This document shows, one piece after another, positions 3,044 through 41,058 of a stretch of 64,000 bases of DNA. Below the pieces are notes generated by a model. That model was not told where the DNA came from, searched no databases, and worked only from the letters and a program-made list of their open reading frames with translations. This DNA comes from Gaiellaceae bacterium. Its GTDB lineage: Bacteria; Actinomycetota; Thermoleophilia; Gaiellales; Gaiellaceae. The stretch is from the NCBI GenBank assembly GCA_036376615.1, contig DASUZZ010000010.1:4614-68613 (forward strand). The letters are read 5' to 3'. Within the stretch, counting starts at the first letter, position 1; each line of letters starts with the position of its first letter. A program made the position numbers and the translations under genes.

Positions 3044-3919
3044 ATGAAGGAACAGCGCGTGATCGGGGTCGATCTCGGCGGCACCAAGATCCTCGCGGGC
3101 GTGATCGATTCCGACGGGCGGCTGCACGAGACGGTCGAGCGGCCGACGGTCACGACCTCGCAGACGGCGCTGCTCGACGAGCTCGCCGACGTCGTCCGGT
3201 CGCTTCCGGTCGACGACGCGGCCGCCGTCGGGTTCGGGATCCCGTCGCGGATCGACCACCGCACGGGCATCGCGCTCGGCGCCGTCAACATCCCGCTGCG
3301 CGAGGTGCCGTTCCTCGCCGAGATGGAGCGGCGTCTCGAGCGGCCGGTGGCGATGGAGAACGACGCCAGCTGCGCCGCCTACGCCGAGTTCAGGCACGGC
3401 GCCGGGCGCGGAGCGGAGAACTTCGTGATGCTGACGCTCGGGACCGGCGTGGGCGGCGGGGTGATCGCCGGCGGCGCCCTGCTCCAGGCGTGGACGGAGC
3501 TCGGCCACATGGTGATCGTCGAGGACGGCGAGCCTTGCTCCGGCGCGTGCTCGGGTCGCGGCCACGTCGAGGCGTACTGCTCGGGCCGCGCCGTCGACCG
3601 GCTCGCGCGCGACCTGCTCGGCCCGGGCGCGACGGCGCACGATCTCGTCGACGACCGAAACCCCGTCCTCGAGCAGGTCGGGTACCACCTCGGGGTCGCG
3701 ATGGGCTCGCTCGTCAACATCTTCGGCGCGGAGCGGATCGTGATCGGCGGCGGCTTCGGGGTCGGCGCGTTCGAGCTGCTGCTCCCGAGCGCGCGGCTCG
3801 CCGTGCTCACCGAGGCGCTCGCGCCCGCGGGCCAGCAGCTCGAGATCGAGCGTGCGGAGCTCGGCGCCTCGGCGGGCGTCATCGGGGCCGCGCTCATCGC
3901 GGTCGAGACGCTGGACTGA
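3044..3919 (+). CDS. ROK-family glucokinase
   Basis: 291 aa. N-terminal VIGVDLGGTKILAGV ATP-binding motif, with ROK-type Cys/His cluster CSGACSGRGHVEAYCSG. Confidence 0.85.
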   Translation: MKEQRVIGVDLGGTKILAGVIDSDGRLHETVERPTVTTSQTALLDELADVVRSLPVDDAAAVGFGIPSRIDHRTGIALGAVNIPLREVPFLAEMERRLERPVAMENDASCAAYAEFRHGAGRGAENFVMLTLGTGVGGGVIAGGALLQAWTELGHMVIVEDGEPCSGACSGRGHVEAYCSGRAVDRLARDLLGPGATAHDLVDDRNPVLEQVGYHLGVAMGSLVNIFGAERIVIGGGFGVGAFELLLPSARLAVLTEALAPAGQQLEIERAELGASAGVIGAALIAVETLD

Positions 3920-3930
3920 CCGCGCGCGCC

Positions 3931-4731
3931 GTGCCGCTCGCAATCTGCGCGACGCCGATCGGAAACCTCGAGGACGTCACCCTGCGCGTCCTCGCCGAGC
4001 TGCGTGATGCCGACCTCGTCCTTGCCGAGGACACGCGCCACACGCGCACGCTGCTCGAGCGCCACGACATCCGGGCGAAGCTGCTCTCCTACCAGGCGCA
4101 CAACGAGGAGGCCCGGCTCCGCGAGGTGCTGCCCCGCCTCGAGTCCGGCGAGCGAATCACACTCGTGTCCGACGCCGGACTCCCGGGCATCTCCGATCCC
4201 GGCATGCGGCTGGTGCGCGCGGCGCGCGACGCGGGCGTCGCCGTCACCGTCCTGCCCGGTCCTTCGGCTGCAACCACCGCACTGGTCGCGAGTGGCCTCG
4301 ACGAGACGCGGTTCATGTTCGTTGGGTTCCTGCCGCGGCGGGATGTCGAGCGCGATCGGCTGTGGGAGTCGCTCGCGGCGTGGGAGGGGGCGATCGTCGC
4401 CTACGAGTCGCCGCGCCGCCTCGCCGCAACGCTCCGCTCGCTGGCGCGCCACGACCCCGCACGAACGGTGGTGGTGTGCCGCGAGCTGACGAAGCGCTAC
4501 GAGGAGGTGGTGCACGGCACCGCCGCGGAGCTCGCCGAGCGCTTCGCCGGCCCGGTGAAGGGCGAGATCACGCTCGTCCTCGGGTCGGCGGCGCCGAGGT
4601 CCGACCCTGCCGACGCCCTTGCGGCCGTGCGGGAGCTCGTGGCGGCGGGCGCCCCGCGCGGGGCGGCCGCCGAGGTCGTCGCGCGGCTGACCGGCACGCC
4701 GCGCAACGAGCTCTACCGCGGCACTCTGTGA
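3931..4731 (+). CDS. rsmI: 16S rRNA (cytidine1402-2'-O)-methyltransferase
   Basis: GTG 3931 is in frame with ORF 3490-4731. PIGNLEDVTLRVLAELRDADLVLAEDTRHTRTLL and SDAGLPGISDPG are RsmI signatures. Confidence 0.9.
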   Translation: MPLAICATPIGNLEDVTLRVLAELRDADLVLAEDTRHTRTLLERHDIRAKLLSYQAHNEEARLREVLPRLESGERITLVSDAGLPGISDPGMRLVRAARDAGVAVTVLPGPSAATTALVASGLDETRFMFVGFLPRRDVERDRLWESLAAWEGAIVAYESPRRLAATLRSLARHDPARTVVVCRELTKRYEEVVHGTAAELAERFAGPVKGEITLVLGSAAPRSDPADALAAVRELVAAGAPRGAAAEVVARLTGTPRNELYRGTL

Positions 4732-4829: not shown

Positions 4830-6242
4830 ATGCGATTCTCGCTGCCGCTGGTCGCGCTGGCCTCGCTCGTCCTCGCCCACGGCGCCGCCGCCTGGACGTG
4901 GCCGGCGAGCGGCGACGTGGTGCAGGCGTACTCCTTCGACCCGGCGCATCCCTACGACGCCGGGCAGCACCGCGGCATCGACGTCGCCGGCGATGCCGGA
5001 GCGACGGTCGTGGCGCCGGAGGAAGGCTCCGTCTCGTTCGCCGGGACGGTCCCTTCCTCCGGCAAGAGCGTCACGATCCTCACGCCCGACGGCTATGCCG
5101 TCACGCTCACGCATCTCGGCACGCTCCTCGTCGCGAAGGGCACGACCGTCGGCGAGGGCGGCGCGGTGGGCACGATCGGGCCGAGCGGCGACGCGGAGGT
5201 GGCGGTGCCGTACGTCCACCTCGGCATCCGCCTCGCCGCCGACGACCAGGGCTACCTCGACCCGGGTTCGCTCCTGCCCCCGCGGACGGCGCCCGCGCCT
5301 CCCGTGCCGCCTGCGCCCGCTCCGGCGCCCGCGCCTGCGGCCCCGGCGGTCGCCCCGGCACCGGAGGCTCCACCGGCCGTCCCGGCGACGCCGCCCGTCG
5401 CCGTCCCGCCCGCCGGGCAACCGGCCGCGACGGTGCCCGGAGACACAACGGGGCCGGTCTCCGGCGCGATCGCGCCTGCGTCGGCGACGACGGCCGCGCA
5501 CGCACCGCCGGTCGCGGCGGTTCCGCGGAACCGCGCCGTCGCGACACCACGAGCCGTGCGCGCTGCCCGCTCCGCGAGGCCGGTCGTCGTCCCGGCTGCT
5601 CGGGCGCCCGGCCCGGAGGGGACGAGCCCGCCCGTGGTGCGCCCTGCCGCCCGCGTGCGCGCGGCCGCGTCGCATCGGGCCGACGTACGGCCGCGCATTC
5701 CCGCGCCGGCGACGCCGGTCGCTCGCGCGACGCGCCCGGTGACGGTGTCCCGGCGACCGGCGCCCGCGCGGCGGGAGCCCGTGCCGCGTGCGACGCCGCC
5801 GCCCGCTGCGTTCGCGCCCCTCGCAGCCGACCCGCGCGACCGCTCGACCGTCCCGGTGCGTGCTCCGCAGCCGCCGGCGACGGCCGTCCCGGCCACGCGC
5901 CGGACAGTGCCCGTCCCCGCGCTCGGGCTCGGGGCGGCGACGCTGGTCGCGTGTGCGCTGTTCGGCTGCGTGGTGCTCCGGCGGCGACGGAGTGAGGCGG
6001 CGAGACCCGTTCGTATGATTGCCGCCAGTGTCGAGCGGCCCGAAGAAGGTCCTGGTGGCGCCTGCGTGGCCGTATGCGGCGGGGTTCCGGCACCTTGGGC
6101 ACGCAGCGGCGTACGTGCCGTTCGACGTGTTCGCGCGCTACCACCGGCTCAAGGGAGACGACGTGCTCGCGGTGAGTGGGACGGACGAGCACGGCACGCC
6201 CGTGATGGTGGCCGCCGACAGAGAGGGGAAGTCCTACCGTGA
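4830..6242 (+). CDS. M23 (LytM-type) metallopeptidase with Pro/Ala-rich linker and C-terminal TM anchor
   Basis: ATG 4830 has a Shine-Dalgarno sequence. A signal peptide [21 protein letters not shown] is followed by the motifs HRGIDVAG and PYVHLGIR. A long PAPAPAP linker and a TM segment ([19 protein letters not shown]) follow. The frame has no stop until 6242, inside metG. Confidence 0.8.
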
Positions 6243-7818
6243 GGTGGCCGACTTCTACAACGCTGCGCATCGCGAGGACTTCCGCAAGCTCGGCTTTACG
6301 TACGACTGCTTCACGCGCACCACCACCCGCAACCACGAGCGCGTCACGCAGGATCTGTTCGCGACGCTGTACGCGCACGGGGCGATCTTCGAACGCGCGC
6401 AGCTCGTTTCGTTCTCGCCGACGACCGGCCACACGCTCCCCGACCGGTACATCGAGGGGACCTGCCCGATCTGCGGCTACCCGCAGGCGCGCGGCGACCA
6501 GTGCGACAACTGCGGCAACCAGCTCGACCCGACCGACCTGATCGACCCGCACTCGAAGATCGACGGCTCGGTGCCGGAGTTCCGCGAGACGAAGCACCTC
6601 TTCCTCGACCTGCCGCGCTTCGCCGAGACGCTCCGCGGGTGGATCCGGGGCCACGACGCGTGGCGGCCGAACGTCCGCAACTTCTCGCTCGGCCTGCTCG
6701 ACGAGATCCGGCCGCGGCCGATCACCCGCGACCTCGACTGGGGCGTGCCCATTCCGGTTCCTGGCTACGCCGACGATCCGAACAAGCGCATCTACGTCTG
6801 GTTCGACGCCGTGATCGGCTACCTCTCGGCGAGCATCGAGTGGGCCTCGCTCCAGGACGACCCCGATCGCTGGCGCGAGTGGTGGCAGACCGAGGACACG
6901 TTGCACGCGTACTTCCAGGGGAAGGACAACATCGTCTTCCACACCGTGATCTGGCCGTCGATCCTGCTCGGCTACGAGGGCGGCGGCGAAGTCGGCGCCG
7001 GCCGGCCCCTGCACCTGCCGGACGACGTGTTCGCGACGGAGTACCTGACGATGGAGAACAAGAAGTTCTCGTCGAGCCGGTCCCAGGGGATCCTCCTGGG
7101 CGACTTCCTCGAGCGCTACGAGCCGGACCCGCTGCGGTACTACCTGGTCGCCGCGAGCCCCGAGACGCAGGACGCCGACTTCACGTGGGCCGATTTCGTC
7201 CGCCGCACCAACGACGAGCTGCTCGCCAACTGGGGCAACCTCGTCAACCGGACCGTGACGAACGCGCACCGCAACTTCGGCGCGGTGCCCGAGCCGGGCT
7301 CGCTCGAGCCGGCCGACGAGGCGCTACTCGCGACGGTCGACGGGGGTTTCGCCGCCGTCGGCGACCACATCGAGCACGGGCGGTTCCGGGCAGCCCTCGG
7401 AGAGGCGATGCGGCTCGCCTCGCAGGTGAACCAGTACCTCTCCGACCAGGCCCCGTGGGCGCTCGTGAAGACCGATCGAGCCCGTGCGGGAACCGTCCTC
7501 TACGTCTCGCTGCGCGCGGTCGACAGCCTGAAGACGATCTTCACGCCGTTCCTGCCACACACCTCGCAGCTCGTGCACGAGCTGCTCGGCTACGACGGCT
7601 GGATCGCCGGCCCGCTCGAGTTCCGCACCGTCGGCGACGGAGCCGACACGCACGAGATCCTGACCGGCGACTACTCGGGCTGGGTGGGGAGCTGGTCGCC
7701 GAGTGAGCTGCTGCCGGGCCAGGAGCTTCGCGAGCCGAAGCCGCTCTTCCGGAAGCTCGACGAGTCGATCGTCGAGGAGGAGCTCCGCCGCATGGCCGCC
7801 GACGGCGCCGGCGCGTGA
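6019..7818 (+). CDS. metG: Methionine--tRNA ligase
   Basis: 599 aa. HLGH (HIGH) motif, Zn knuckle [18 protein letters not shown], and KFSSSRS (KMSKS-like) motif. Confidence 0.95.
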
Positions 7819-8549
7819 TCGACACCCACGCGCACCTCGGCGAGGACGCGGCCGAGGTGCTCGACCGCGCGCGCGCGGCCGGCGTGACTCGCATCGTCGC
7901 CGTCGCGACGACGGTGGCCGACGCGCACGGTGTGCTGGCGCTCGCCGACGCCGAGGACGGGGTGTACGCCGCGCTCGGCATCCATCCGCACGAGGCGGGA
8001 ACCGCGCGCGAGGCCGACGTCGACGAGCTGCGTGCGCTGCTGTCCCATCCCAGGGTCGTCGCCGTCGGCGAGACGGGCCTCGACCACTTCCGGGACTATG
8101 CGCCGCGCGATGCGCAGCGCTGGCTCTTCGAGGCGCAGCTCGGGCTCGCGGCCGAGTGGGGGAAGCCCGTCGTGATCCACACCCGCGCCGCCGACGACGA
8201 CACGCTGGAGATGTTGCGTGCCCACGATGGAGCGGTCGTCCTCCACTGCTTCTCGTCGCCGCCGCTGCTCGCCGAGGCGTCGCGGCGCGGCTGGTACGTC
8301 TCCTTCGCCGGGAACGTCACCTACAAGAACGCGTACGACCTGCGTTCCTCCGCACGCGCGGTGGCGTCCGACCGGCTGCTCGCGGAGACGGACAGCCCGT
8401 ACCTCGCGCCCCAGCCGGTCCGGGGACGCCGCAACGAGCCCGCGTTCGTCGTCCATACGTATCGCGCGCTCGCGGAGGCTCGCGGCGTCGAGCTCGACGC
8501 GCTCGTCGCGCGGGTCGACGCGAACGCCGACGCCGTCTTTGCGCTGTGA
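7815..8549 (+). CDS. TatD-family metal-dependent hydrolase/DNase (YabD-like)
   Basis: The start MIDTHAHL is typical. A GTGA overlap joins it to the metG stop. Confidence 0.9.
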
Positions 8550-9304
8550 GCGTCCGCCCCCGGAAGGCACTGGGCCAGCACTTCCTCGCCGACGCCAACA
8601 TCCTCGGCGTGATCGAGCGGCTCGCGTCGCTCGCGCCGGAGGACGTCGTGCTCGAGGTCGGCCCCGGCCTCGGTGTGCTCACCCGCTTCCTCGCTGAGCG
8701 CGTCGCCCTGGTGCACGCGGTCGAGGTCGACCGGCGCCTCGAGGGCGAGCTCGCCGGGATCCCGCGCGCGGTGATCCACTGGGGCGATGCGCTCGCCGTC
8801 GACCCGTCGCAGCTGGAGCCGAGCCCACGCAAGCTCGTCGCGAACCTGCCGTACAACATCGCGACGCCGCTCGTCGTCGAGAGCCTCTCGTTCGAGCCGC
8901 TCGACCTGTGGTGCGTGATGGTGCAGCGCGAGGTCGCCGACCGCTTCTTCGCCGAGCCGTCGACGAAGGCGTACGGTGCAGTCTCGGTGCTCATCCAGCT
9001 GGCGGTGACACGCACCGGCTTTCATCCCGTGTCGCGCGAGGTGTTCCGTCCGCGCCCGAATGTCGAGTCGGCGCTCGTCGCCTTCCGGCGCACCGGCGCC
9101 GGAGCGGGGCCGCAGGTGAAGCGCGTGGTCGAGGCCGCCTTCTCGCACCGCAGGAAGACGCTCGCGAACGCGGTAGCGCTCGCCGGGGTCGCGTCACGGC
9201 AGCAGGCGGTCGCCGCGCTTGCCGCGATCGGCCGTCGCGACGGCGCGCGGGCGGAGGAGCTCGCCCCGGGCGAGTTCGTCGCGCTCGCGGAGGCGCTCGC
9301 ATGA
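8546..9304 (+). CDS. rsmA: 16S rRNA (adenine1518/1519-N6)-dimethyltransferase
   Basis: GTG 8546 overlaps the tatD-like stop. ALGQHFLADANILGVI and VLEVGPGLGVLT are the KsgA SAM-binding motifs. Confidence 0.93.
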   Translation: MSVRPRKALGQHFLADANILGVIERLASLAPEDVVLEVGPGLGVLTRFLAERVALVHAVEVDRRLEGELAGIPRAVIHWGDALAVDPSQLEPSPRKLVANLPYNIATPLVVESLSFEPLDLWCVMVQREVADRFFAEPSTKAYGAVSVLIQLAVTRTGFHPVSREVFRPRPNVESALVAFRRTGAGAGPQVKRVVEAAFSHRRKTLANAVALAGVASRQQAVAALAAIGRRDGARAEELAPGEFVALAEALA

Positions 9305-10098
9305 TCGCGTCGGCGCCGGCGAAGATCAACCTGTCGCTGGTCGTCGGGCCCCGTCGGGACGACGGCATGCACGAGCTGCTCACCGTCTACCAGCGCGTCG
9401 CGCTCGCCGACACGATCGCCGTCGAGCCCGCGCCGGCGACGACGGTCGAGGGGTTCGCCGACGACACGCTCGTCGCCGCCGCGCTGGCGTCGCTCGACGC
9501 CCCACACGGCTGGCGCGCAGAGATCGAGAAGCACGTTCCGGTGGCGGCGGGGCTCGGCGGCGGCAGCTCCGACGCCGCGGCGGCGCTGCGGCTCGGCAAC
9601 GCGCAGCTCGAGCGGCCGCTCGACGACGCCCGGCTGCGCGAGCTCGCCCTGCGCCTCGGCGCCGACGTCCCTTTCTTCCTCGTCGAAGGGCCGCAGCTCG
9701 GAAGCGGCGTCGGTGCGACGTTCGAGCCGCTCAGCTTGCCGCAGGACTTCGTCGTGCTTCTGCTGCTGCCCGACGGCGCCCGGAAGACCTCGACCGGCGC
9801 GGTGTACGACGCGTTCGACGCGCGCGGCGGCGGGGACGGGTTCGCGGCGCGCGCGCAGACGCTGCGCGACACGGTCGCGCGCGCTTCGGAGGCCGCGGAC
9901 CTCTCCGGGCTGCCGCCGAACGACCTCGCAAGCTCACCCCTGACCGGGACGCTGCTCGAGCTCGGCGCCTTCCGCGCCGACGTGAGCGGTGCCGGACCGG
10001 TCGTCTACGCGCTCTTCGAGGAGCGGTCCGCCGCGGACCGTGCGCGGGCCGCATCAGGGCATCTCGGCGACTGCTGGGTCACCGAACCAGCGTGGTAG
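9301..10098 (+). CDS. ispE: 4-(cytidine 5'-diphospho)-2-C-methyl-D-erythritol kinase
   Basis: ATG 9301 overlaps the rsmA stop (ATGA). APAKINLSLVVGPRRDDGMHEL and the GHMP motif PVAAGLGGGSSDAAA are present. Confidence 0.9.
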   Translation: MIASAPAKINLSLVVGPRRDDGMHELLTVYQRVALADTIAVEPAPATTVEGFADDTLVAAALASLDAPHGWRAEIEKHVPVAAGLGGGSSDAAAALRLGNAQLERPLDDARLRELALRLGADVPFFLVEGPQLGSGVGATFEPLSLPQDFVVLLLLPDGARKTSTGAVYDAFDARGGGDGFAARAQTLRDTVARASEAADLSGLPPNDLASSPLTGTLLELGAFRADVSGAGPVVYALFEERSAADRARAASGHLGDCWVTEPAW

Positions 10099-10111
10099 CG
10101 TGGACCGCGAG

Positions 10112-10462
10112 ATGTCCTATGCGATCGAGCACGGCTCGACCCGCACCGGCCGCTGGTTTCGCCAGCAGCGTCTGAAGATCACCCTCGGGGTCGCCGCATT
10201 CGAGGGGCTGCTGTATCTGATCGGCGTGCTCGGCTGGTGGGAGGCATTCCTCTTCGCTGCAATCGCGAGCGCCCTCTGGTGGTTCCTGGGCCGCGGCAGC
10301 CGCTCGGACGTCGTGCGCGAGGTCACGTGGATACTGGCTGCGTCGCAGCTGATCGTGCTCTGTGTGCCGCTCGCGCTCGGGCTCGTCAAGGCGGTGGCGA
10401 TCGCCGTCGTCGCCCTGCTCGCCGTGGTCGCGCTGGTCTTCCTGTTCACCGAGCGCCGGTAG
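10112..10462 (+). CDS. Small integral membrane protein, function unknown
   Basis: ATG 10112 is in frame in ORF 9989-10462. There are three hydrophobic helices (GVLGWWEAFLFAAIASALWWFL, ILAASQLIVLCVPLALGLV, AIAVVALLAVVALVFLF). Confidence 0.6.
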   Translation: MSYAIEHGSTRTGRWFRQQRLKITLGVAAFEGLLYLIGVLGWWEAFLFAAIASALWWFLGRGSRSDVVREVTWILAASQLIVLCVPLALGLVKAVAIAVVALLAVVALVFLFTERR

Positions 10463-10471
10463 ACCCACACC

Positions 10472-10477
10472 TATACT
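10472..10477 (+). promoter_or_regulatory. -10-like hexamer TATACT, 10 nt upstream of tRNA-Gln
   Basis: This is a near-consensus -10 in otherwise GC-rich DNA. I found no convincing -35. Confidence 0.3.
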
Positions 10478-10487
10478 CGGGGCGCAG

Positions 10488-10561
10488 TGGGGCGTAGCCA
10501 AGCGGTAAGGCAGCGGGTTTTGGTCCCGCGATCCCAGGTTCGAATCCTGGCGCCCCAGCCA
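10488..10561 (+). tRNA. tRNA-Gln (anticodon UUG), CCA encoded
   Basis: Cloverleaf folded by hand. Acceptor TGGGGCG/CGCCCCA, anticodon stem GCGGG/CCCGC with loop TT-TTG-GT, T-arm CCAGG-TTCGAAT-CCTGG, discriminator G plus CCA. It closely resembles E. coli tRNA-Gln. Confidence 0.93.
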
Positions 10562-10582
10562 TCTCGCTGACCTGGCGACGAC

Positions 10583-11917
10583 ATGCCCGACCCGCCGCTC
10601 GCAGCCCTGATCATGGCCGGAGGCCTCGGCACCCGGATGCGCTCGTCCGTGCCGAAGCACTTCCACCCGATCCTCGGCCGGCGGCTCGTCGACTGGGTGA
10701 TCGCGAGCGCCGCCGCGACCGGGTCGGAGCCGATCGTCGTCGTCGCCTCGCCGACGGGCCGCGATGCGTTCGGCGACCAGGACGTCACCGTCGCGGTGCA
10801 GGCGGAGCCCCTCGGGACGGGCGACGCTGCGCGGTCGGCGCGCGAGGCGCTCGCCGGACACGACGGCGATGTGCTCGTGCTCTCCGGCGACACGCCGCTG
10901 CTGACGCCGGAGCTGCTCGAGGCGCTCGTCGACACGCACCGCTCGACCCGTGCCGCGGCGACGATCCTCACCGCGAAGCCATCCGATCCCCGCCTCTACG
11001 GGCGGATCGTCCGCGGTGACGACGGTTCGGTGATCCGGATCGCGGAGGGCACGGATGCGACCACCGACGAGCTCGAGCTCGACGAGATCAATTCGTCGAT
11101 CTACGTCTTCCGTTCGGACGCGCTCTGGCCGGCGCTCGAGCGGCTGCAGCCGAAGAACGCGCAGGGCGAGCTGTACCTCACCGATGCGATCGGCGTGCTC
11201 ACCGGCGACGGAGCGCTCGTATCCGCGCACCTCGCGCCGGATCCCGACGAGGCCGAGGGCGTGAACACGCGGGTCGAGCTCGCGGTCGCCGGGGGGGTGC
11301 TGCGCGACCGGATCAACGAACGCCACATGCTGGCCGGCGTGACGATCGTCGACCCGTCGAGCACGTGGATCGACCCGACGGTCGAGATCGGCCGAGACGT
11401 CACGGTCGACCCGTTCACCGTGCTGCGCGGCCGCACGCGCGTCGGCGAAGGGGCCGAGATCCGTCCGCACACGGTCGCGGTGGACAGCGAGATCGGCGCG
11501 CGAGCCGTCGTCGGGCCGTTCTGTTACCTTCGCCCCGGAACGACCCTCGGCGAGTCCTCGAAGGCAGGCACCTACGTGGAGATCAAGAACTCGCGCATCG
11601 GTGACCGCACGAAGGTCCCGCACCTCTCGTACATCGGCGATGCCGACATCGGCCCGGACACGAACATCGGCGCCGGCAACATCACCGCGAACTACAGCCA
11701 TCGCCCCGGCGAGCCGAAGAAGAGGACGACGATCGGCGGCAACGTCAGAACCGCGATTCACAATGGGTTCGTCGCTCCAGTGGAGGTGGGTGACGGCGCA
11801 TGGATTGCCGCCGGATCGGTGATCACGAAAGATGTTCCGGCCGGGGCACTCGCGATCGCGAGGCAGCGGCAGGAGAACAAGGAGGGGTATGCAGCCCGGA
11901 AGCAGCGCGACGAGTGA
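10583..11917 (+). CDS. glmU: Bifunctional UDP-N-acetylglucosamine diphosphorylase / glucosamine-1-phosphate N-acetyltransferase
   Basis: 444 aa. LIMAGGLGTRMRSSVPKHFHPILG nucleotidyltransferase motif with a C-terminal left-handed beta-helix of hexapeptide repeats. Confidence 0.95.
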   Translation: MPDPPLAALIMAGGLGTRMRSSVPKHFHPILGRRLVDWVIASAAATGSEPIVVVASPTGRDAFGDQDVTVAVQAEPLGTGDAARSAREALAGHDGDVLVLSGDTPLLTPELLEALVDTHRSTRAAATILTAKPSDPRLYGRIVRGDDGSVIRIAEGTDATTDELELDEINSSIYVFRSDALWPALERLQPKNAQGELYLTDAIGVLTGDGALVSAHLAPDPDEAEGVNTRVELAVAGGVLRDRINERHMLAGVTIVDPSSTWIDPTVEIGRDVTVDPFTVLRGRTRVGEGAEIRPHTVAVDSEIGARAVVGPFCYLRPGTTLGESSKAGTYVEIKNSRIGDRTKVPHLSYIGDADIGPDTNIGAGNITANYSHRPGEPKKRTTIGGNVRTAIHNGFVAPVEVGDGAWIAAGSVITKDVPAGALAIARQRQENKEGYAARKQRDE

Positions 11918-12953
11918 GCTTGCCCTCCCGGGCCTCGAGGCGCTCGAGCCCGTGACGCAGCCTGCCCCCGGCCACTGGCTCGAGCGCGGGCCGCGGAAGC
12001 GGCTGATGGTGTTCAGCGGCCGCTCGCATCCTGCGCTCGCGGAGCGGATCGTCGAGCAGTTCGGCGTCGAGCTCGGCGAGATCGACCTCGGCACGTTCGC
12101 GAACGGCGAGACGTATTGCCGCTACGACGAGTCGATCCGCGGCGCCGACGTCTTCCTCGTGCAGACCGGCTGTGCGCCGGTCGACCGAAACGTGATGGAG
12201 CTCGTCTTCATGATCCAGGCGGCCAAACTGGCGTCGGCGAAGCGGATCACTGCCGTCATTCCGCTCTTCCCCTACGCCCGCCAGGACCGGAAGGCGAAGC
12301 CGCGCGAGCCGATCTCGGCGCGGCTGATCGCCGACATGCTCCAGCTGGCCGGCGCCGACCGGGTGCTGACGATGGACCTCCACGCCGGCCAGATCCAGGG
12401 GTTCTTCACCATCCCGGTCGACCACATGACCGCGCTGCCGCTCTTCGCTCGGCACTTCCGCGATCTCGGGCTCACCGGGGACGACGTCGTCTCGGTGTCG
12501 CCCGACGCAGGGCGCGCGAAGATGGCCGTGCGGTTCGCCGAGATGATCGACGCGGGGTTCGCGCTGATGCACAAGACGCGCCCGGCCCACGACGTCGCCG
12601 AGGTGACCGAGATCACCGGCCGCGTGCGCGGCAAGAAGGCCGTCCTCGGGGACGACGTGATCATGACCGGCGGCACGCTGCTCGCGAACGTCAACGCCCT
12701 CAGGCAGCACGGCGTCGAGGACGTCTGGGTGTTCGCGACCCACGGCCTGTTCTGCGGCGGCGCGCTCGAGCGCTTCGCCGATGCCGGGATCGAGGGGATC
12801 GTCGTCACCGACACCGTCCCGATCGATCCGATCGCGAAGCCCGAGAACCTGACGGTGCTGACCGTCGCCCCGCTGCTCGCCGAGACGATCATGAACGTCT
12901 TCGCCGACGACTCGGTCAGCGCCATCTTCGGCGGCGAGAATCAACTCTTTTAG
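11889..12953 (+). CDS. prs: Ribose-phosphate pyrophosphokinase
   Basis: MVFSGRSHPALAERIVEQFGVELGEIDLGTFANGETYCRYDESIRGADVFLVQ plus a PRPP loop. I chose ATG 11889 because AAGGAGGGG lies 3 nt upstream. ATG 12006 is an alternative start. Confidence 0.9.
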   Translation: MQPGSSATSELALPGLEALEPVTQPAPGHWLERGPRKRLMVFSGRSHPALAERIVEQFGVELGEIDLGTFANGETYCRYDESIRGADVFLVQTGCAPVDRNVMELVFMIQAAKLASAKRITAVIPLFPYARQDRKAKPREPISARLIADMLQLAGADRVLTMDLHAGQIQGFFTIPVDHMTALPLFARHFRDLGLTGDDVVSVSPDAGRAKMAVRFAEMIDAGFALMHKTRPAHDVAEVTEITGRVRGKKAVLGDDVIMTGGTLLANVNALRQHGVEDVWVFATHGLFCGGALERFADAGIEGIVVTDTVPIDPIAKPENLTVLTVAPLLAETIMNVFADDSVSAIFGGENQLF

Positions 12954-13213
12954 TCGGGGAGAGAACCGACGGTTCTCTCCCCAAGGCCCCTCTCTCCCTT
13001 GGCGCACGTCCGTGCAACGCGCTATTGGTCTCCCGCCGGGCAAAGCCCGGCTCCGGCCGCAACGGTGAGCATTCGTACGACGGAACTGTGAGGGTGACGG
13101 TGACCGTCGAGACCGAAGCCGAGCTTGGCTCGGCGAGAGGTCAGGCGCGGGTCGCGTTGGCGCGCGAACAGGGAGAGAGGGGCATTGGGGGGAGAACCGC
13201 AGGTTCTTCCCCC
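12952..13213. repeat. Structured intergenic element, copy 1 (hairpin - 13-bp long-range helix enclosing about 170 nt - hairpin); MITE-like or sRNA
   Basis: - Left hairpin: perfect 12-bp, GGGGAGAGAACC-GAC-GGTTCTCTCCCC (12956-12982).
- Long-range helix: GCCCCTCTCTCCC (12986-12998) pairs perfectly with GGGAGAGAGGGGC (13171-13183).
- Right hairpin: 12-bp, GGGGGGAGAACC-GCA-GGTTCTTCCCCC (13187-13213).
- Internal hairpins: 13034-13050 and 13118-13134.
- The two ends form roughly 50-bp imperfect terminal inverted repeats. Confidence 0.6.
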
Positions 13214-13231
13214 AAGCTAATATGGGCGGCC

Positions 13232-13909
13232 GTGCCGTCGGAGCGCCATCAACTGCCGGTCTCGCACCGGGACGTGCTCGGCTCCGCCGAGTCCCGCCGG
13301 CTGCGCCGGCAGGGGCTCGTGCCCGGGATCCTCTACGGCCGCGAGCGGCCCGTGGCGATCACCGTCCCCGAGCGCGACCTGCGCGCCGCGTTGACGACCG
13401 ACGGCGGGCTGAATGCGGTGCTCGACGTGGTCGTCGACGACGCGGGGAAAGCACATCCGTCGGTACTCAAGGAGTTCCAGCGCGACGCCGTCCGCGGCGT
13501 GATCACGCACGTCGACCTGCAGGAGGTTCGCCTCGACCAGCCGATCCACGCGACCGTGCCGGTCGCGCTCGTCGGGGAGGCGGTCGGCGTCAAGGAAGGC
13601 GGCGTGCTCTCCCAGGTGACGATCGAGGTGAACGTCGAGGCGCTACCGATGGAGGTGCCTCAGCATCTCGATCTCGACGTGTCGACGCTCGGGATCGGCG
13701 ACACGGCGCGTCTCGACGCGCTGGACGTCCCCGAGGGCGTCAGGCTGCTCGACGACCCGGACACCGTGCTCGCGAGCGTCACGCACGCGACCCGCGTCGA
13801 GGAGCCCGAGGAAGAGGCACCCGCCGAGGGCGAGGCCGCCGAGCCCGGCGCGGAGCCCGAAGCCGAAGCCGAGGCCGCCGCCGAGAGCGACGGCGACGCC
13901 GAGAGCTAG
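13232..13909 (+). CDS. rplY: 50S ribosomal protein L25 / general stress protein Ctc, with acidic C-terminal tail
   Basis: GTG 13232 is in frame with ORF 12116-13909. GSAESRRLRRQGLVPGILYG and the VITHVDLQEV motif are present, with an EAE-rich tail. Confidence 0.9.
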   Translation: MPSERHQLPVSHRDVLGSAESRRLRRQGLVPGILYGRERPVAITVPERDLRAALTTDGGLNAVLDVVVDDAGKAHPSVLKEFQRDAVRGVITHVDLQEVRLDQPIHATVPVALVGEAVGVKEGGVLSQVTIEVNVEALPMEVPQHLDLDVSTLGIGDTARLDALDVPEGVRLLDDPDTVLASVTHATRVEEPEEEAPAEGEAAEPGAEPEAEAEAAAESDGDAES

Positions 13910-13916
13910 AGACTTG

Positions 13917-14507
13917 ATGCGGCTCTGGCCGCGCCGTCAGGGCACCTCGCTCGATCTGCTCGTCGCCGGACTGGGCAACCCCGGCAGCGAGTACGCACAC
14001 AACCGCCACAACGTCGGCCGGCTCGTCGTGGACGAGCTCGCGCGCAGGCACGACGGGAGCTGGCGCTCGAAGTTCAACGGCCGCATCGCCGAGGTGCGCA
14101 TCGACGGCCACAAGGTCGCGCTGCTGAAGCCCGAGACGTACATGAACGACTCCGGGCGCTCCGTCCAGGCTGCCGCGCGCTTCTACAAGATCGAGCCCGA
14201 CGCCGTGCTCGTCGTCCACGACGAGAGCGACCTCGAACTGGGGCGGCTGCAGCTGCGGCACGGCGGCGGCCTCGCGGGACACAACGGGCTGCGCTCGGTC
14301 GCTGGTGGGCTCGGCGGCGCCGGGTTCCTGCGCCTTCGCGTCGGCGTGGGGAGGCCGGAGCGCGGCGACCCGCGCAAGCTCGCCGACTGGGTGCTGTCGG
14401 ACTTCGCTCCGCACGAGGACGCAGAGTCGATCGTGAGCCGTGCCGCCGACGCGGTCGAGGCGCTCGACGCCGACGGGCTCGAGGCGGCACAGCGGAAGGT
14501 GAATTGA
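13917..14507 (+). CDS. pth: Peptidyl-tRNA hydrolase
   Basis: LLVAGLGNPGSEYAHNRHNVG and GHNGLRS motifs. A TTG at 13914 is also possible as the start. Confidence 0.93.
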   Translation: MRLWPRRQGTSLDLLVAGLGNPGSEYAHNRHNVGRLVVDELARRHDGSWRSKFNGRIAEVRIDGHKVALLKPETYMNDSGRSVQAAARFYKIEPDAVLVVHDESDLELGRLQLRHGGGLAGHNGLRSVAGGLGGAGFLRLRVGVGRPERGDPRKLADWVLSDFAPHEDAESIVSRAADAVEALDADGLEAAQRKVN

Positions 14508-38892: not shown

Positions 38893-40206
38893 GTGACCTT
38901 CGCCCTCGAGCTGCTGGCCCTGTTCGGGCTGATCGCCCTGAACGCGTTCTTCGTGGCCGCCGAGTACGGGCTGGTCACCTCGCGGCGTACGCGCATCATG
39001 GAGCTCGAGCACCAGGGGAACCGGCGTGCCCGGAGGGTGCTCGGGATCACGTCCGACCCGCCGCGCTTCATCGCGGCGATGCAGCTCGGCGTGACGATCT
39101 CCTCGCTGGCGATCGGTGCTCTCGGCGAGCAGGTGCTCTCGCGCCGCTTCGACGCCGTGATGGCGTCGTTCCTCGCCGTGATCGTCGCCCTGCTGATCGT
39201 CACCTACCTCCATGTCGTGATCGGCGAGCTCGTGCCGAAGGGGATCGCCCTGGGGCACCCGGAACGAACGGCGCTCTGGGTGTCGGCGCCCGTGCGGGCG
39301 TTCTTCGTCGTGTTCCGTCCGCTGATCTGGCTGCTCGAGCGCTCGTCGGAGGTGATCCTGCGCCTGCTCTCCCTGGAGCCGCCGGGCGCGGAGGGCGAGG
39401 CGCACTCCGAGGCCGAGCTGCGGATGCTGCTCTCCTCGTCGGCCGAGCAGGGCGAGATCGAGCCCGGCGAGCAGGAGATGCTCTACAAGGTCTTCGACTT
39501 CGCCGACAAGGAGGTCGCGGACGTGATGGTGCCGCGGCCGGAGGTGGCTGCGATCGCGATCTCGCTGCCGCCCGAGGAGGCGCTGCAGGCGGTCCTCGAC
39601 TCCCCGTACACGCGCTACCCGGTCTACGGCGAGTCGCTGGACGACATCGTCGGCGTCCTCCACGTACGCGACCTGTTCGAGGCGATCTACGACCGTGGGC
39701 TCGCCGCCGTCGACATCGCCCAGATCGTCCGGCCCGTCTACATGGTCCCGGAGACGAAGGACCTCGCTGCGCTTTTGACCGAGTTCCGCCGCACGAACCA
39801 GCACCTCGCGATCGTGATCGACGAGTACGGCTCGACGGAGGGAATCGTCACCCTCGAGGACCTGCTCGAGGAGATCGTCGGCGAGATCGAGGACGAGTTC
39901 GACCTCCCGGACGAGACTGTCGAGAGGGTCGACGACGACACGGTGCGCATCGACGGCACGTTCACGATCGACGACTTCAACGAGCGCTTCGACGTCGAGC
40001 TGCCCGAGGACGACTACCACACCATCGCCGGCTTCGTGTTCGGGCGGCTCGGTCGCGCGGCCGTCCCGGGTGACGAGGTGTCGCACGACGGGCTGCGGTT
40101 CCAGGTCGAGTCGGTCGACGGGCAGCGCATCGGGCGCCTGCTCGTGACCTTCCAGCCGCGGCACCGGCACGAGGCGGAGCGCGGTGCCGCCGGCCAGGAC
40201 GGATAG
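38893..40206 (+). CDS. CNNM/CorC-HlyC family protein (DUF21 membrane domain + CBS pair + CorC_HlyC)
   Basis: 437 aa. The N-terminal DUF21 domain reads LIALNAFFVAAEYGLV, followed by a CBS pair and a C-terminal transporter-associated domain. Confidence 0.9.
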   Translation: MTFALELLALFGLIALNAFFVAAEYGLVTSRRTRIMELEHQGNRRARRVLGITSDPPRFIAAMQLGVTISSLAIGALGEQVLSRRFDAVMASFLAVIVALLIVTYLHVVIGELVPKGIALGHPERTALWVSAPVRAFFVVFRPLIWLLERSSEVILRLLSLEPPGAEGEAHSEAELRMLLSSSAEQGEIEPGEQEMLYKVFDFADKEVADVMVPRPEVAAIAISLPPEEALQAVLDSPYTRYPVYGESLDDIVGVLHVRDLFEAIYDRGLAAVDIAQIVRPVYMVPETKDLAALLTEFRRTNQHLAIVIDEYGSTEGIVTLEDLLEEIVGEIEDEFDLPDETVERVDDDTVRIDGTFTIDDFNERFDVELPEDDYHTIAGFVFGRLGRAAVPGDEVSHDGLRFQVESVDGQRIGRLLVTFQPRHRHEAERGAAGQDG

Positions 40207-40216
40207 ATTGCCCGCG

Positions 40217-40453
40217 ATGACGGAGCCGCTGATGACGCTGCGCGCGAACGCCGAGGAGCTGCCGGCTCCGCCGGGCGCGATGACGGACTACCTCGAGAAG
40301 GTGCGCGTCCGCGCCTCCACGATCACCGACGCGGACGTGGAGGAGCTGAAGTCGGCCGGCGTCTCGGAGGACGAGATCTTCGAGCAGACCGTCGGCGTCG
40401 CGATCCGCGAGGGGATGCGCCGGCTCGACGCGGCGGCGGAGGCGATCGGATGA
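40217..40453 (+). CDS. Short CMD/AhpD-family fragment (C-terminal half-domain only)
   Basis: 78 aa. YLEKVRVRASTITDADVEELKSAGVSEDEIFEQTVGVAI resembles the C-terminal helices of CMD peroxidase-related proteins. The CxxC half is absent. The stop overlaps the next start (ATGA). Confidence 0.5.
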   Translation: MTEPLMTLRANAEELPAPPGAMTDYLEKVRVRASTITDADVEELKSAGVSEDEIFEQTVGVAIREGMRRLDAAAEAIG

Positions 40454-41058
40454 ACGTCCGGCTCGAGTGCATCGACCACGGCCATGCGCCCGAGCAGGCC
40501 GAGATGCTCGCGGAGATCCGCGAGCGCGGCGGACGCGAGCCGCTCGGCGTCGTGAAGACTCTGCTCTACCGTCCGGAGCTCTTCGGCGGGCCGTTCTCGG
40601 ACGAGCTCGACGACGTCATGCGCGGCCCGTCCGACTGGAGCCCCGGCGAGCGGGAGCTCTTCGCCGGCTTCGCCTCGCAGCTCAACCAGTGTTTGTTCTG
40701 AGCGGGCTCCCACGGCGCGGTCGCGTCGTACGCACTCGGAGAGGACGTCTGGCACGCGGTGGTCGCCGACTACCGCACGGCGCCGATCGACGAGCGCCTG
40801 CGGGCGGCGCTCCGCTTCATCGAGAAGCAGACGCTGCGCCCCGAGGAGCTGACGCCGGCCGACGCCGAGGAGGCGTACGCGGCCGGCGTCTCGAAGCAGG
40901 CGCTGCTCGACGCGGCGAAGGTCTCGGCGCTCTTCAACATGATCGTGCGGCTCGCCGACGCCTTCGGGTGGGAGGTGCCGGAGTGGGACCGGCTGCTCCA
41001 ACGCGCCGCCGCGATGCTCGAGGGCGGCTACCGGATGGGCGCGATCCGCAGCCGGTAG
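40450..41058 (+). CDS. AhpD/CMD-family peroxidase-related protein with in-frame TGA (candidate selenocysteine, CxxU) at 40699-40701
   Basis: ORFs 40450-40701 and 40759-41058 share a frame, and TGA is the only stop between them. The joined sequence gives E-x11-C-L-F-[TGA]-A-G-S-H, the AhpD catalytic signature, and a complete 202-aa CMD domain. A pseudogene (TGY to TGA) is not excluded. Confidence 0.6.
40707..40741 (+). other. SECIS-like stem-loop downstream of the in-frame TGA
   Basis: The upper hairpin is ACGGCGC-GGUC-GCGUCGU (40712-40729), starting 10 nt after the TGA. The outer helix is CUCC/GGAG (40707-10 / 40738-41). The GGUC apical loop resembles the E. coli fdhF SECIS loop in sequence and distance. 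Confidence 0.45.

Follow-up and report, generated by a model that had tools for sequence, protein, structure and literature searches.

A gene divided by a single UGA codon

The window analysed here is a 64-kb stretch (64,000 nucleotides) of contig DASUZZ010000010.1 from a Gaiellaceae bacterium. At positions 40450 to 41058 its plus strand carries a complete gene for an AhpD-like, peroxidase-related protein of the carboxymuconolactone decarboxylase (CMD) superfamily, in which one in-frame UGA codon very probably encodes selenocysteine (Sec). Two open reading frames (ORFs), 40450-40701 (83 aa) and 40759-41058 (99 aa), lie in a common frame with an offset of 309 nucleotides, or 3 x 103. The TGA at 40699-40701 is the sole stop separating them, and the 19 codons that follow it (40702-40758) are open. 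Read through from ATG 40450 to the TAG at 41056-41058, the gene yields a product of 202 aa, ...GERELFAGFASQLNQ-C-L-F-[TGA]-A-G-S-H-GAVASYALG..., with the predicted Sec at residue 84. No other TGA in the window has an open frame of coding type (GC content at third codon positions of at least 0.86) on both sides.

The UGA codon occupies the second position of a CxxC/CxxU redox motif, and comparative evidence points to its use as a Sec codon (U84). Around the motif the joined product reads ...SPGERELFAGFASQLNQ-C81-L-F-[UGA84]-A-G-S-H88, and the spacing of E69-x11-C81-x2-[UGA]84-x3-H88 is kept in all fetched orthologues, as is Cys81 (codon TGT, 40690-40692), the first residue of CxxU. Glu69 (codon 40654-40656) lies 12 residues ahead of Cys81, and His88 (CAC, 40711-40713), invariant in the protein alignment, follows four residues past position 84. 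They are the counterparts of Glu118 and His137 in AhpD from Mycobacterium tuberculosis, in which the relay residues are Glu118, Cys130, His132, Cys133 and His137 (PMC3141380). The E-x11-C-x2-(C/U)-x3-H spacing is identical in the two proteins. The middle residues of the motif, however, are S-H in M. tuberculosis AhpD and L-F here, so that a counterpart of His132 is missing, and the predicted Sec stands in place of Cys133. The Cys133 equivalent is the more reactive of the AhpD cysteines.

Much of this had been read from the letters alone in an earlier note on this DNA. Its description of two ORFs in one frame with a single intervening TGA and 19 open codons was confirmed from the sequence, and the joined 202-aa AhpD/CMD-like protein by translation and domain profiles. 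The placing of the TGA at the second Cys of E-x11-C-x-x-C-x3-H proved correct in its spacing, and the AhpD numbering used there agrees with the published one (PMC3141380). The note had also expected the locus to be mis-annotated as two ORFs. In hundreds of Gaiellales genomes, and in soil metagenome contigs, the public gene calls indeed either split the gene into fragments (83 + 99 or 81 + 118 aa) or give Trp at the UGA. As a consequence, protein databases lack the catalytic centre.

Two bases next to the UGA are also restricted. The Phe codon directly before it (40696-40698) is TTC in 84/84 sequences and never TTT, and the following base is never T among 81 sequences (A in 60, G in 17, C in 4). 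Such a context may be needed for Sec decoding or to avoid termination.

Profile scores were computed with Cys substituted for the UGA-encoded residue. The best NCBIfam match was TIGR01926, 'peroxidase-related enzyme', with 81.7 bits against a cut-off of 81.8 over 159 of 178 profile positions. The all-helical AhpD core domain TIGR00778 (30.3 bits, cut-off 27.8) and the Pfam CMD domain PF02627 (23.2 bits, cut-off 23) both scored above threshold. On the basis of these domain hidden Markov models and the E-x11-C-x2-C-x3-H signature, the protein is assigned to the AhpD/CMD superfamily. A profile of the family also matched solved structures, among them PDB 6k40 (AhpD; E = 1.4e-29), 3c1l, 2oyo, 2pfx and 2prr. 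These matches span E = 1e-29 to 1e-18 over approximately 120 to 150 residues, and PDB members of the TIGR01926 subfamily were matched with E = 1e-23. The CxxC of the solved AhpD-like or 'uncharacterized peroxidase-related protein' structures aligns to C81/U84 (6k40: LNRCVYCAVSHGA). All of them have Cys where this protein would have Sec, and sequence identity is moderate.

Two narrower assignments were rejected. The family NF041238 (AhpD_rel_CFYUT alkylhydroperoxidase-related (seleno)protein) scored 48.4 bits against a cut-off of 175, with only the C-terminal third of the profile matched. Its architecture of about 357 aa with a CFYUT motif differs from the motif CLFUA at this locus and CPFUT in the family, and the protein is not a member. 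Assignment to the canonical AhpC/AhpD alkylhydroperoxidase system failed on the absence of an adjacent ahpC gene and on the motif, which is C-L-F-U and not CxHC. Rather than canonical AhpD, the protein is probably a member of the shorter 'peroxidase-related' subfamily (TIGR01926).

AhpD-like selenoproteins with a CxxU motif have been described before, among others in the metagenome surveys of Zhang and Gladyshev, as the earlier note had stated in general terms. The Global Ocean Sampling survey lists 'AhpD-like 1' (COG2128, CxxU) with 299 members (PMC2398784), a selenoproteome review from 2026 catalogues 'AhpD-like protein, TIGR01926, CxxU' (PMC13188914), and BSepDB holds an AhpD-like family page. 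The present gene shares with the catalogued family the domain type, with TIGR01926 as its best NCBIfam match, the predicted Sec at the second position, abundant Cys homologues and a putative selenocysteine insertion sequence (SECIS) within the ORF directly 3' of the codon. The reference sequence of the review is MCB9421940.1, and the likeness to the family of the review rests on family label and motif. While the described members come mainly from marine metagenomes, the present one is syntenic and apparently ubiquitous in soil Gaiellales (Thermoleophilia, Actinomycetota). A conserved small ORF upstream and, in one sub-lineage, direct linkage to selA, selB and tRNA-Sec set it apart further. A search of the available paper library found no paper tying Gaiellales to selenoproteins. 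The gene adds a member to the AhpD-like CxxU selenoprotein family, which has been catalogued since 2005-2008, and it is systematically broken in public annotation.

Conservation of the codon and of the adjoining hairpin

A homologue search of 5.8 billion proteins gave 349 matches in all. Among the best 120, the great majority are ORFs of approximately 118 aa covering 57-58% of the query, and those that were fetched start with 'MGSHGAV...', exactly one codon past the UGA position. Full-length calls from JGI read 'CPF-W-TGSHG', where W is TGA under an alternative code, as checked on contig L213. JGI short-contig calls render the TGA as W in L213 (252-1193), in the proteins P0001-P0005, P0007 and P0060 and in others, and would thereby hide Sec as Trp. 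One protein from a 51-kb ENA contig (P0010) is a 184-aa call whose two ends match the family but which is out of frame around CxxU; a frameshift or a faulty gene call seems to have carried it past the TGA.

Among GTDB species-representative genomes, 292 relatives were identified, and the best 80 were taken. All of these are metagenome-assembled genomes (MAGs) of Gaiellales, Gaiellaceae or Thermoleophilia, with 66-81% amino acid identity. Together with four further contigs they provide 84 fetched gene-bearing loci, and the codon is TGA in every one of them (84/84), never TGC, TGT, TAA or TAG. Metagenome contigs were also scanned with a pattern that left the codon free and required the hairpin described below. 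The scan matched at least 120 contigs, and the codon was TGA in 121/121 of the matches listed. A 5.8-kb metagenome contig (L149) holds two partial UGA-plus-hairpin copies in opposite orientation, at 2333-2365 on the minus and 3476-3508 on the plus strand. One of them has a garbled upstream frame, and the inverted copies are probably an assembly artefact.

Distant homologues carry Cys at this position. Among the full-length forms recovered in a second homologue search, the Sec column holds C in 84, 'W' (that is, TGA) in 15 and R in two. The Cys homologues include CMD-family proteins of Mycobacterium, and TGT or TGC was verified in the DNA for three. The earlier note had proposed to inspect this column in orthologues and to look for signs of decay in relatives. 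The column turned out as just described, and neither extra stops nor frameshifts were found.

The orthologues are well separated from each other, with a median nucleotide p-distance of 0.20 and a maximum of 0.32 (84 distinct sequences). In the same set, mean column entropies at codon positions 1, 2 and 3 were 0.33, 0.30 and 0.90 upstream of the TGA and 0.35, 0.32 and 0.94 downstream of it. As judged from these alignments, both halves of the gene and the 19 codons past the TGA are under the same purifying selection in a single frame.

The hairpin ACGGCGC-GGUC-GCGUCGU (40712-40729, plus strand) starts 10 nucleotides past the TGA and is present in the minimum free energy fold. Its stem (40712-40718/40723-40729) has 7 bp including one G-U pair, just as the earlier note had drawn it, and its loop comprises 40719-40722. 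With the T of TGA counted as 0, the stem extends from +13 to +19 and from +24 to +30, and a GU dinucleotide lies at +21/+22. All seven stem pairs are identical in 73 distinct aligned sequences. The frozen stem includes the third positions of the codons for His (CAC), Gly (GGC), Ala (GCG) and Ser (TCG). For instance, the last two bases of the His88 codon are the first two of the stem, and its third base is C in 84/84. Conserved degenerate codons have an invariant third base in 4/7 cases within the hairpin versus 4/87 elsewhere (Fisher p = 7e-4), and the Gly, Ser and Ala codons adjoining the hairpin vary freely.

Within the loop, which has the consensus R-G-U-Y, the central GU (40720-40721; nucleotides 22-23 when the U of UGA is 1) is invariant. 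The two flanking bases, 40719 and 40722, are both synonymous sites. Across the 73 sequences they are G...C in 35 and A...U in 38, and G...U or A...C never occurs. On a neighbour-joining tree this R:Y pair has switched independently at least nine times. The alignment indicates that the conserved loop feature is the GU dinucleotide on a closing R:Y pair and not GGUC as such. The hairpin is lost in all three Cys-form homologues (TGT or TGC) that were examined, where 3, 2 and 7 of the 8 pairs are disrupted. A hairpin of 7 bp with a loop of 4 nucleotides is a common feature in this window of approximately 72% GC, at 0.00125 per nucleotide. One with an NGUN loop positioned 8-14 nucleotides past a given TGA is expected with a frequency of about 4e-4; it was found at one of the 965 TGA triplets of the window, namely that at 40699.

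The SECIS of E. coli fdhF has a spacer of approximately 11 nucleotides, an upper stem-loop from nucleotide 15 and the essential loop bases G23 and U24 (PMC8659212). The hairpin studied here is likewise an in-ORF stem-loop, with a spacer of 10 nucleotides, a stem starting at nucleotide 14, and G and U at nucleotides 22 and 23. The near-fdhF geometry proposed in the earlier note stood up in this respect. Its GGUC apical loop is that of the window, but the conserved loop is RGUY. An outer CUCC/GGAG helix (40707-10/40738-41), which the note had stacked beneath the hairpin, is present in the window. It is not conserved, as 40740 is T in 58/81 distinct orthologues, which breaks a U-A pair. The lower pairs predicted by RNAalifold, which include the UGA itself, are invariant and so hold no covariation information. 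Compared with fdhF, an RGUY loop with a covarying R:Y pair replaces a fixed sequence and the lower stem is without covariation support. The bulged U17 of fdhF has no counterpart, and an invariant G-U wobble is found in that region instead. By its pattern of constraint, the hairpin appears to behave as a functional RNA element of the bacterial SECIS type, presumably bound by SelB. With more than 80 distinct orthologues in which the stem is frozen and a loop pair covaries, the family could help to train bacterial SECIS predictors for high-GC Actinomycetota.

Probable selenocysteine decoding and competing explanations

Genes for Sec decoding were sought by tblastn with SelA, SelB and SelD fragments and by ARAGORN over the window and the 84 loci (1.54 Mb). 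Within this set, sel genes and tRNA-Sec were found in one locus only, L078, a long-read MAG whose orthologue is 67% identical. There, selD, selA, selB and a tRNA-Sec(UCA) occupy 5594-10603, and the tRNA, called by ARAGORN and by Rfam (RF01852, 64.5 bits), ends approximately 260 nucleotides upstream of the orthologue. The stitched pieces exceed the NCBIfam equivalog cut-offs (SelA 435.9/267.9, SelB 265.8/242, SelD 133/125). Another gene of L078, near 13250, is also frameshifted; both the tRNA-Sec and the orthologue itself are intact.

Intact machinery was found in other relatives. A 1.03-Mb contig (L085; region 10001-14000) holds intact selA (431 aa) and selB (564 aa), a tRNA-Sec(UCA) at 12998-13089, the small ORF and the orthologue with its TGA at 13607. 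In both L085 and L078 the order is sel genes, tRNA-Sec, small ORF and selenoprotein gene, unlike the window with its radical SAM and CNNM genes upstream. Many intact SelA proteins with 73-87% identity exist, several of them named as Gaiellaceae by NCBI. In the Gaiellaceae MAG GCA_035650615.1 (L086/L087), selD-selA-selB lies beside an fdhA-type gene with an in-frame TGA. This formate-dehydrogenase-type molybdopterin gene (L087, 3823-7089) has its TGA at 4390 (ARI-U-HSSTV) and adjoins genes for Fe-S and NrfD subunits; ENA splits it in two, and NCBI annotates a read-through product of 1088 aa. Its hairpin, GGUCCCC-GGUCU-GGGGACC, has a 7-bp stem (+14 to +20/+26 to +32) and the 5-nucleotide loop GGUCU, and is nearly identical in design and spacing to that at 40712-40729.

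We regard it as highly probable that UGA 40699-40701 is a genuine Sec codon served by a SECIS. This reading is favoured because the TGA is conserved, homologues carry Cys, the hairpin is constrained and covaries at its loop, Cys forms have lost the hairpin, and relatives possess the Sec machinery. The ribosome would pause at UGA84, where the hairpin, exposing the invariant G-U in its apical loop, would act as a bacterial SECIS and recruit SelB-GTP-Sec-tRNA(Sec). Upon insertion of Sec, translation would run on through A85-G-S-H88 to the TAG at 41056. The product would be a 202-residue CxxU AhpD-like thiol/selenol oxidoreductase with a C81-L-F-U84 centre and a presumed Glu69/His88 relay, selenium standing in for the second cysteine at the Cys133 equivalent beside the relay residues. 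It probably serves to detoxify peroxides or disulfides, as a reductase or an adaptor. Translation of the gene would be coupled to that of the 89-aa ORF upstream.

Several observations weigh against this reading. Neither selA, selB, selD nor tRNA-Sec was found in the 64-kb window, and the Sec competence of the source organism is deduced from relatives. In L078, selD, selA and selB (5594-9640) can be read only with numerous frame switches, about one in every 150-300 nucleotides, which could be assembly indels or real decay. Since the stem is invariant, covariation comes from one pair only, and this pair would close a loop of two nucleotides and is no standard helix extension. The fold of 40696-40760 (65 nucleotides) is less stable than that of shuffled sequences (z = +1.96). 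Rfam scans of the whole window at the gathering threshold and of 40600-40850 at E <= 10 gave no family of the SECIS type. Rfam appears to be without an applicable bacterial SECIS model, which makes this null result uninformative. Finally, the TIGR01926 score falls 0.1 bit short of the curated cut-off.

Among the competing explanations, the best standing, though still improbable, belongs to read-through of the UGA with a standard residue, namely Cys, Trp or Gly. A near-cognate or suppressor tRNA, for example a tRNA-Cys(UCA) that resembles tRNA-Sec, would decode the codon, and the hairpin would do no more than stimulate the read-through. This explanation has a precedent in the tRNA-Sec look-alike tRNA-Cys opal suppressors described in deltaproteobacteria (PMC5389517). 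However, ARAGORN and Rfam both identify the tRNA adjoining the orthologue as tRNA-Sec, this tRNA is flanked by intact SelA and by SelB, and selD is present in L078 and in GCA_035650615.1. Moreover, the position is that of a redox Cys, a classical site of Sec/Cys exchange, and the geometry of the hairpin matches the fdhA SECIS from the same organism family. SelA converts Ser-tRNA(Sec) to Sec-tRNA(Sec). Even less likely is termination at 40701 with re-initiation, the 83-aa N-terminal and the C-terminal pieces assembling non-covalently as a split AhpD-like protein. Gene callers do yield two ORFs, and in 12/81 distinct orthologues the TGA is followed by a codon with a central T (ATG, CTG or CTC), the callers starting at those with ATG. 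In most orthologues, however, this codon is ACG or GCG and not a start codon, and initiation at the next in-frame start of the window, GTG 40759, would lose the invariant His88 along with the conserved segment GSHGAVASYALG. Codons +1 to +19 past the TGA are under selection at the amino acid level with free synonymous change. Selection in the same frame on both halves and on these codons therefore makes independent translation of a C-terminal piece very unlikely. A split protein would also leave the frozen hairpin, its loss in Cys forms and the selA-selB-tRNA-Sec linkage unexplained.

The probability of either remaining explanation is close to nil. A pseudogene would need one base change from TGT or TGC to TGA in a Cys-type AhpD-like gene and a chance hairpin, of a kind that is common in GC-rich DNA and whose fold is not unusually stable here. 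Yet the TGA is retained throughout the 84 loci and the 121 listed metagenome matches, there is no other stop or frameshift, the synonymous sites of the hairpin are frozen, and the divergence of the orthologues shows that they are not assembly duplicates of one sequence. As purifying selection does not differ between the two halves of the gene, decay is excluded. A genome-wide sense code for UGA (code 4 or 25) would account for the JGI pipeline rendering several homologues with TGA as W. TGA is, however, the commonest stop of the window, where it ends 22/37 gene-like ORFs including the small ORF upstream, and only the TGA at 40699 interrupts a coding-type frame. This stop-codon usage refutes a genome-wide reassignment of UGA.

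If the Sec reading holds, the restored gene is an added selenoprotein for an abundant, poorly cultured order of soil actinobacteria, and a very common one in soil Gaiellales. Knowledge of Sec decoding and of AhpD-like selenoproteins is unchanged by it, and the main interest of the gene lies in its ubiquity among Gaiellales and in the clean SECIS data set that it offers.

The upstream ORF, AGA variants and the neighbourhood

A conserved small ORF of 89 aa (40184-40453, plus strand) precedes the gene, and its TGA stop overlaps the ATG of the predicted selenoprotein (ATGA). A GGAGG motif resembling a Shine-Dalgarno sequence, and possibly functioning as such, lies 7 nucleotides 5' of ATG 40450 (40438-40442, plus strand). 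The small ORF is found directly upstream in 86/87 gene-bearing loci, usually with an ATGA or GTGA overlap. Its product shows weak similarity to the C-terminal helices of the AhpD-like domain (TIGR01926 positions 109-160, E = 5.7e-4) and matches residues 123-154 of the selenoprotein by BLASTP with E = 6e-5. In the protein P0007, a JGI call under code 4, the two are artificially fused through the TGA stop of the small ORF. The small ORF is probably a co-translated operon partner of the selenoprotein gene, and its product may be a partner subunit.

We put forward, as a speculation with the odds clearly against it, that the AhpD-like selenoprotein and the 89-aa ORF form an unrecognised two-protein Se-dependent redox module, a core and vertically inherited pair of the order Gaiellales. 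If this were true, the module may be a main reason why these abundant aerobic soil Actinomycetota retain the Sec machinery, which fits the gene arrangement in L085 and L078. Moreover, the putative SECIS, in which a 7-bp stem is frozen and the R:Y pair enclosing the exposed GU covaries, would define a lineage-specific mode of SelB recognition.

Two divergent metagenomic homologues, each a singleton, have AGA at the Sec column and keep the hairpin: L089 (codon 1575; 7/8 pairs) and L092 (codon 1399; 8/8 pairs). Each is nearest to a different TGA-form sequence, and they arose separately. A metagenome scan for the AGA-plus-hairpin pattern gave 0 matches, compared with 121/121 TGA among the matches listed for the free codon. 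The second homologue search revealed no R forms at this column beyond the two, and no tRNA genes were found on the contigs of L089 and L092. The likeliest explanation is sporadic mutation from Sec to Arg or a sequencing error. Natural recoding of sense codons was reportedly described by Mukai et al. in 2016. A recoding of AGA to Sec is unlikely here because L089 and L092 are singletons.

The only tRNA gene of the window, a tRNA-Gln(UUG) at 10488-10561 on the plus strand, is also its only Rfam match at the gathering threshold. Neighbours of the selenoprotein gene in the window encode a radical SAM protein and a CNNM/CBS/CorC transporter and, on the opposite strand, an FGGY kinase and a xylose-isomerase-like protein. 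Relatives show the same synteny.

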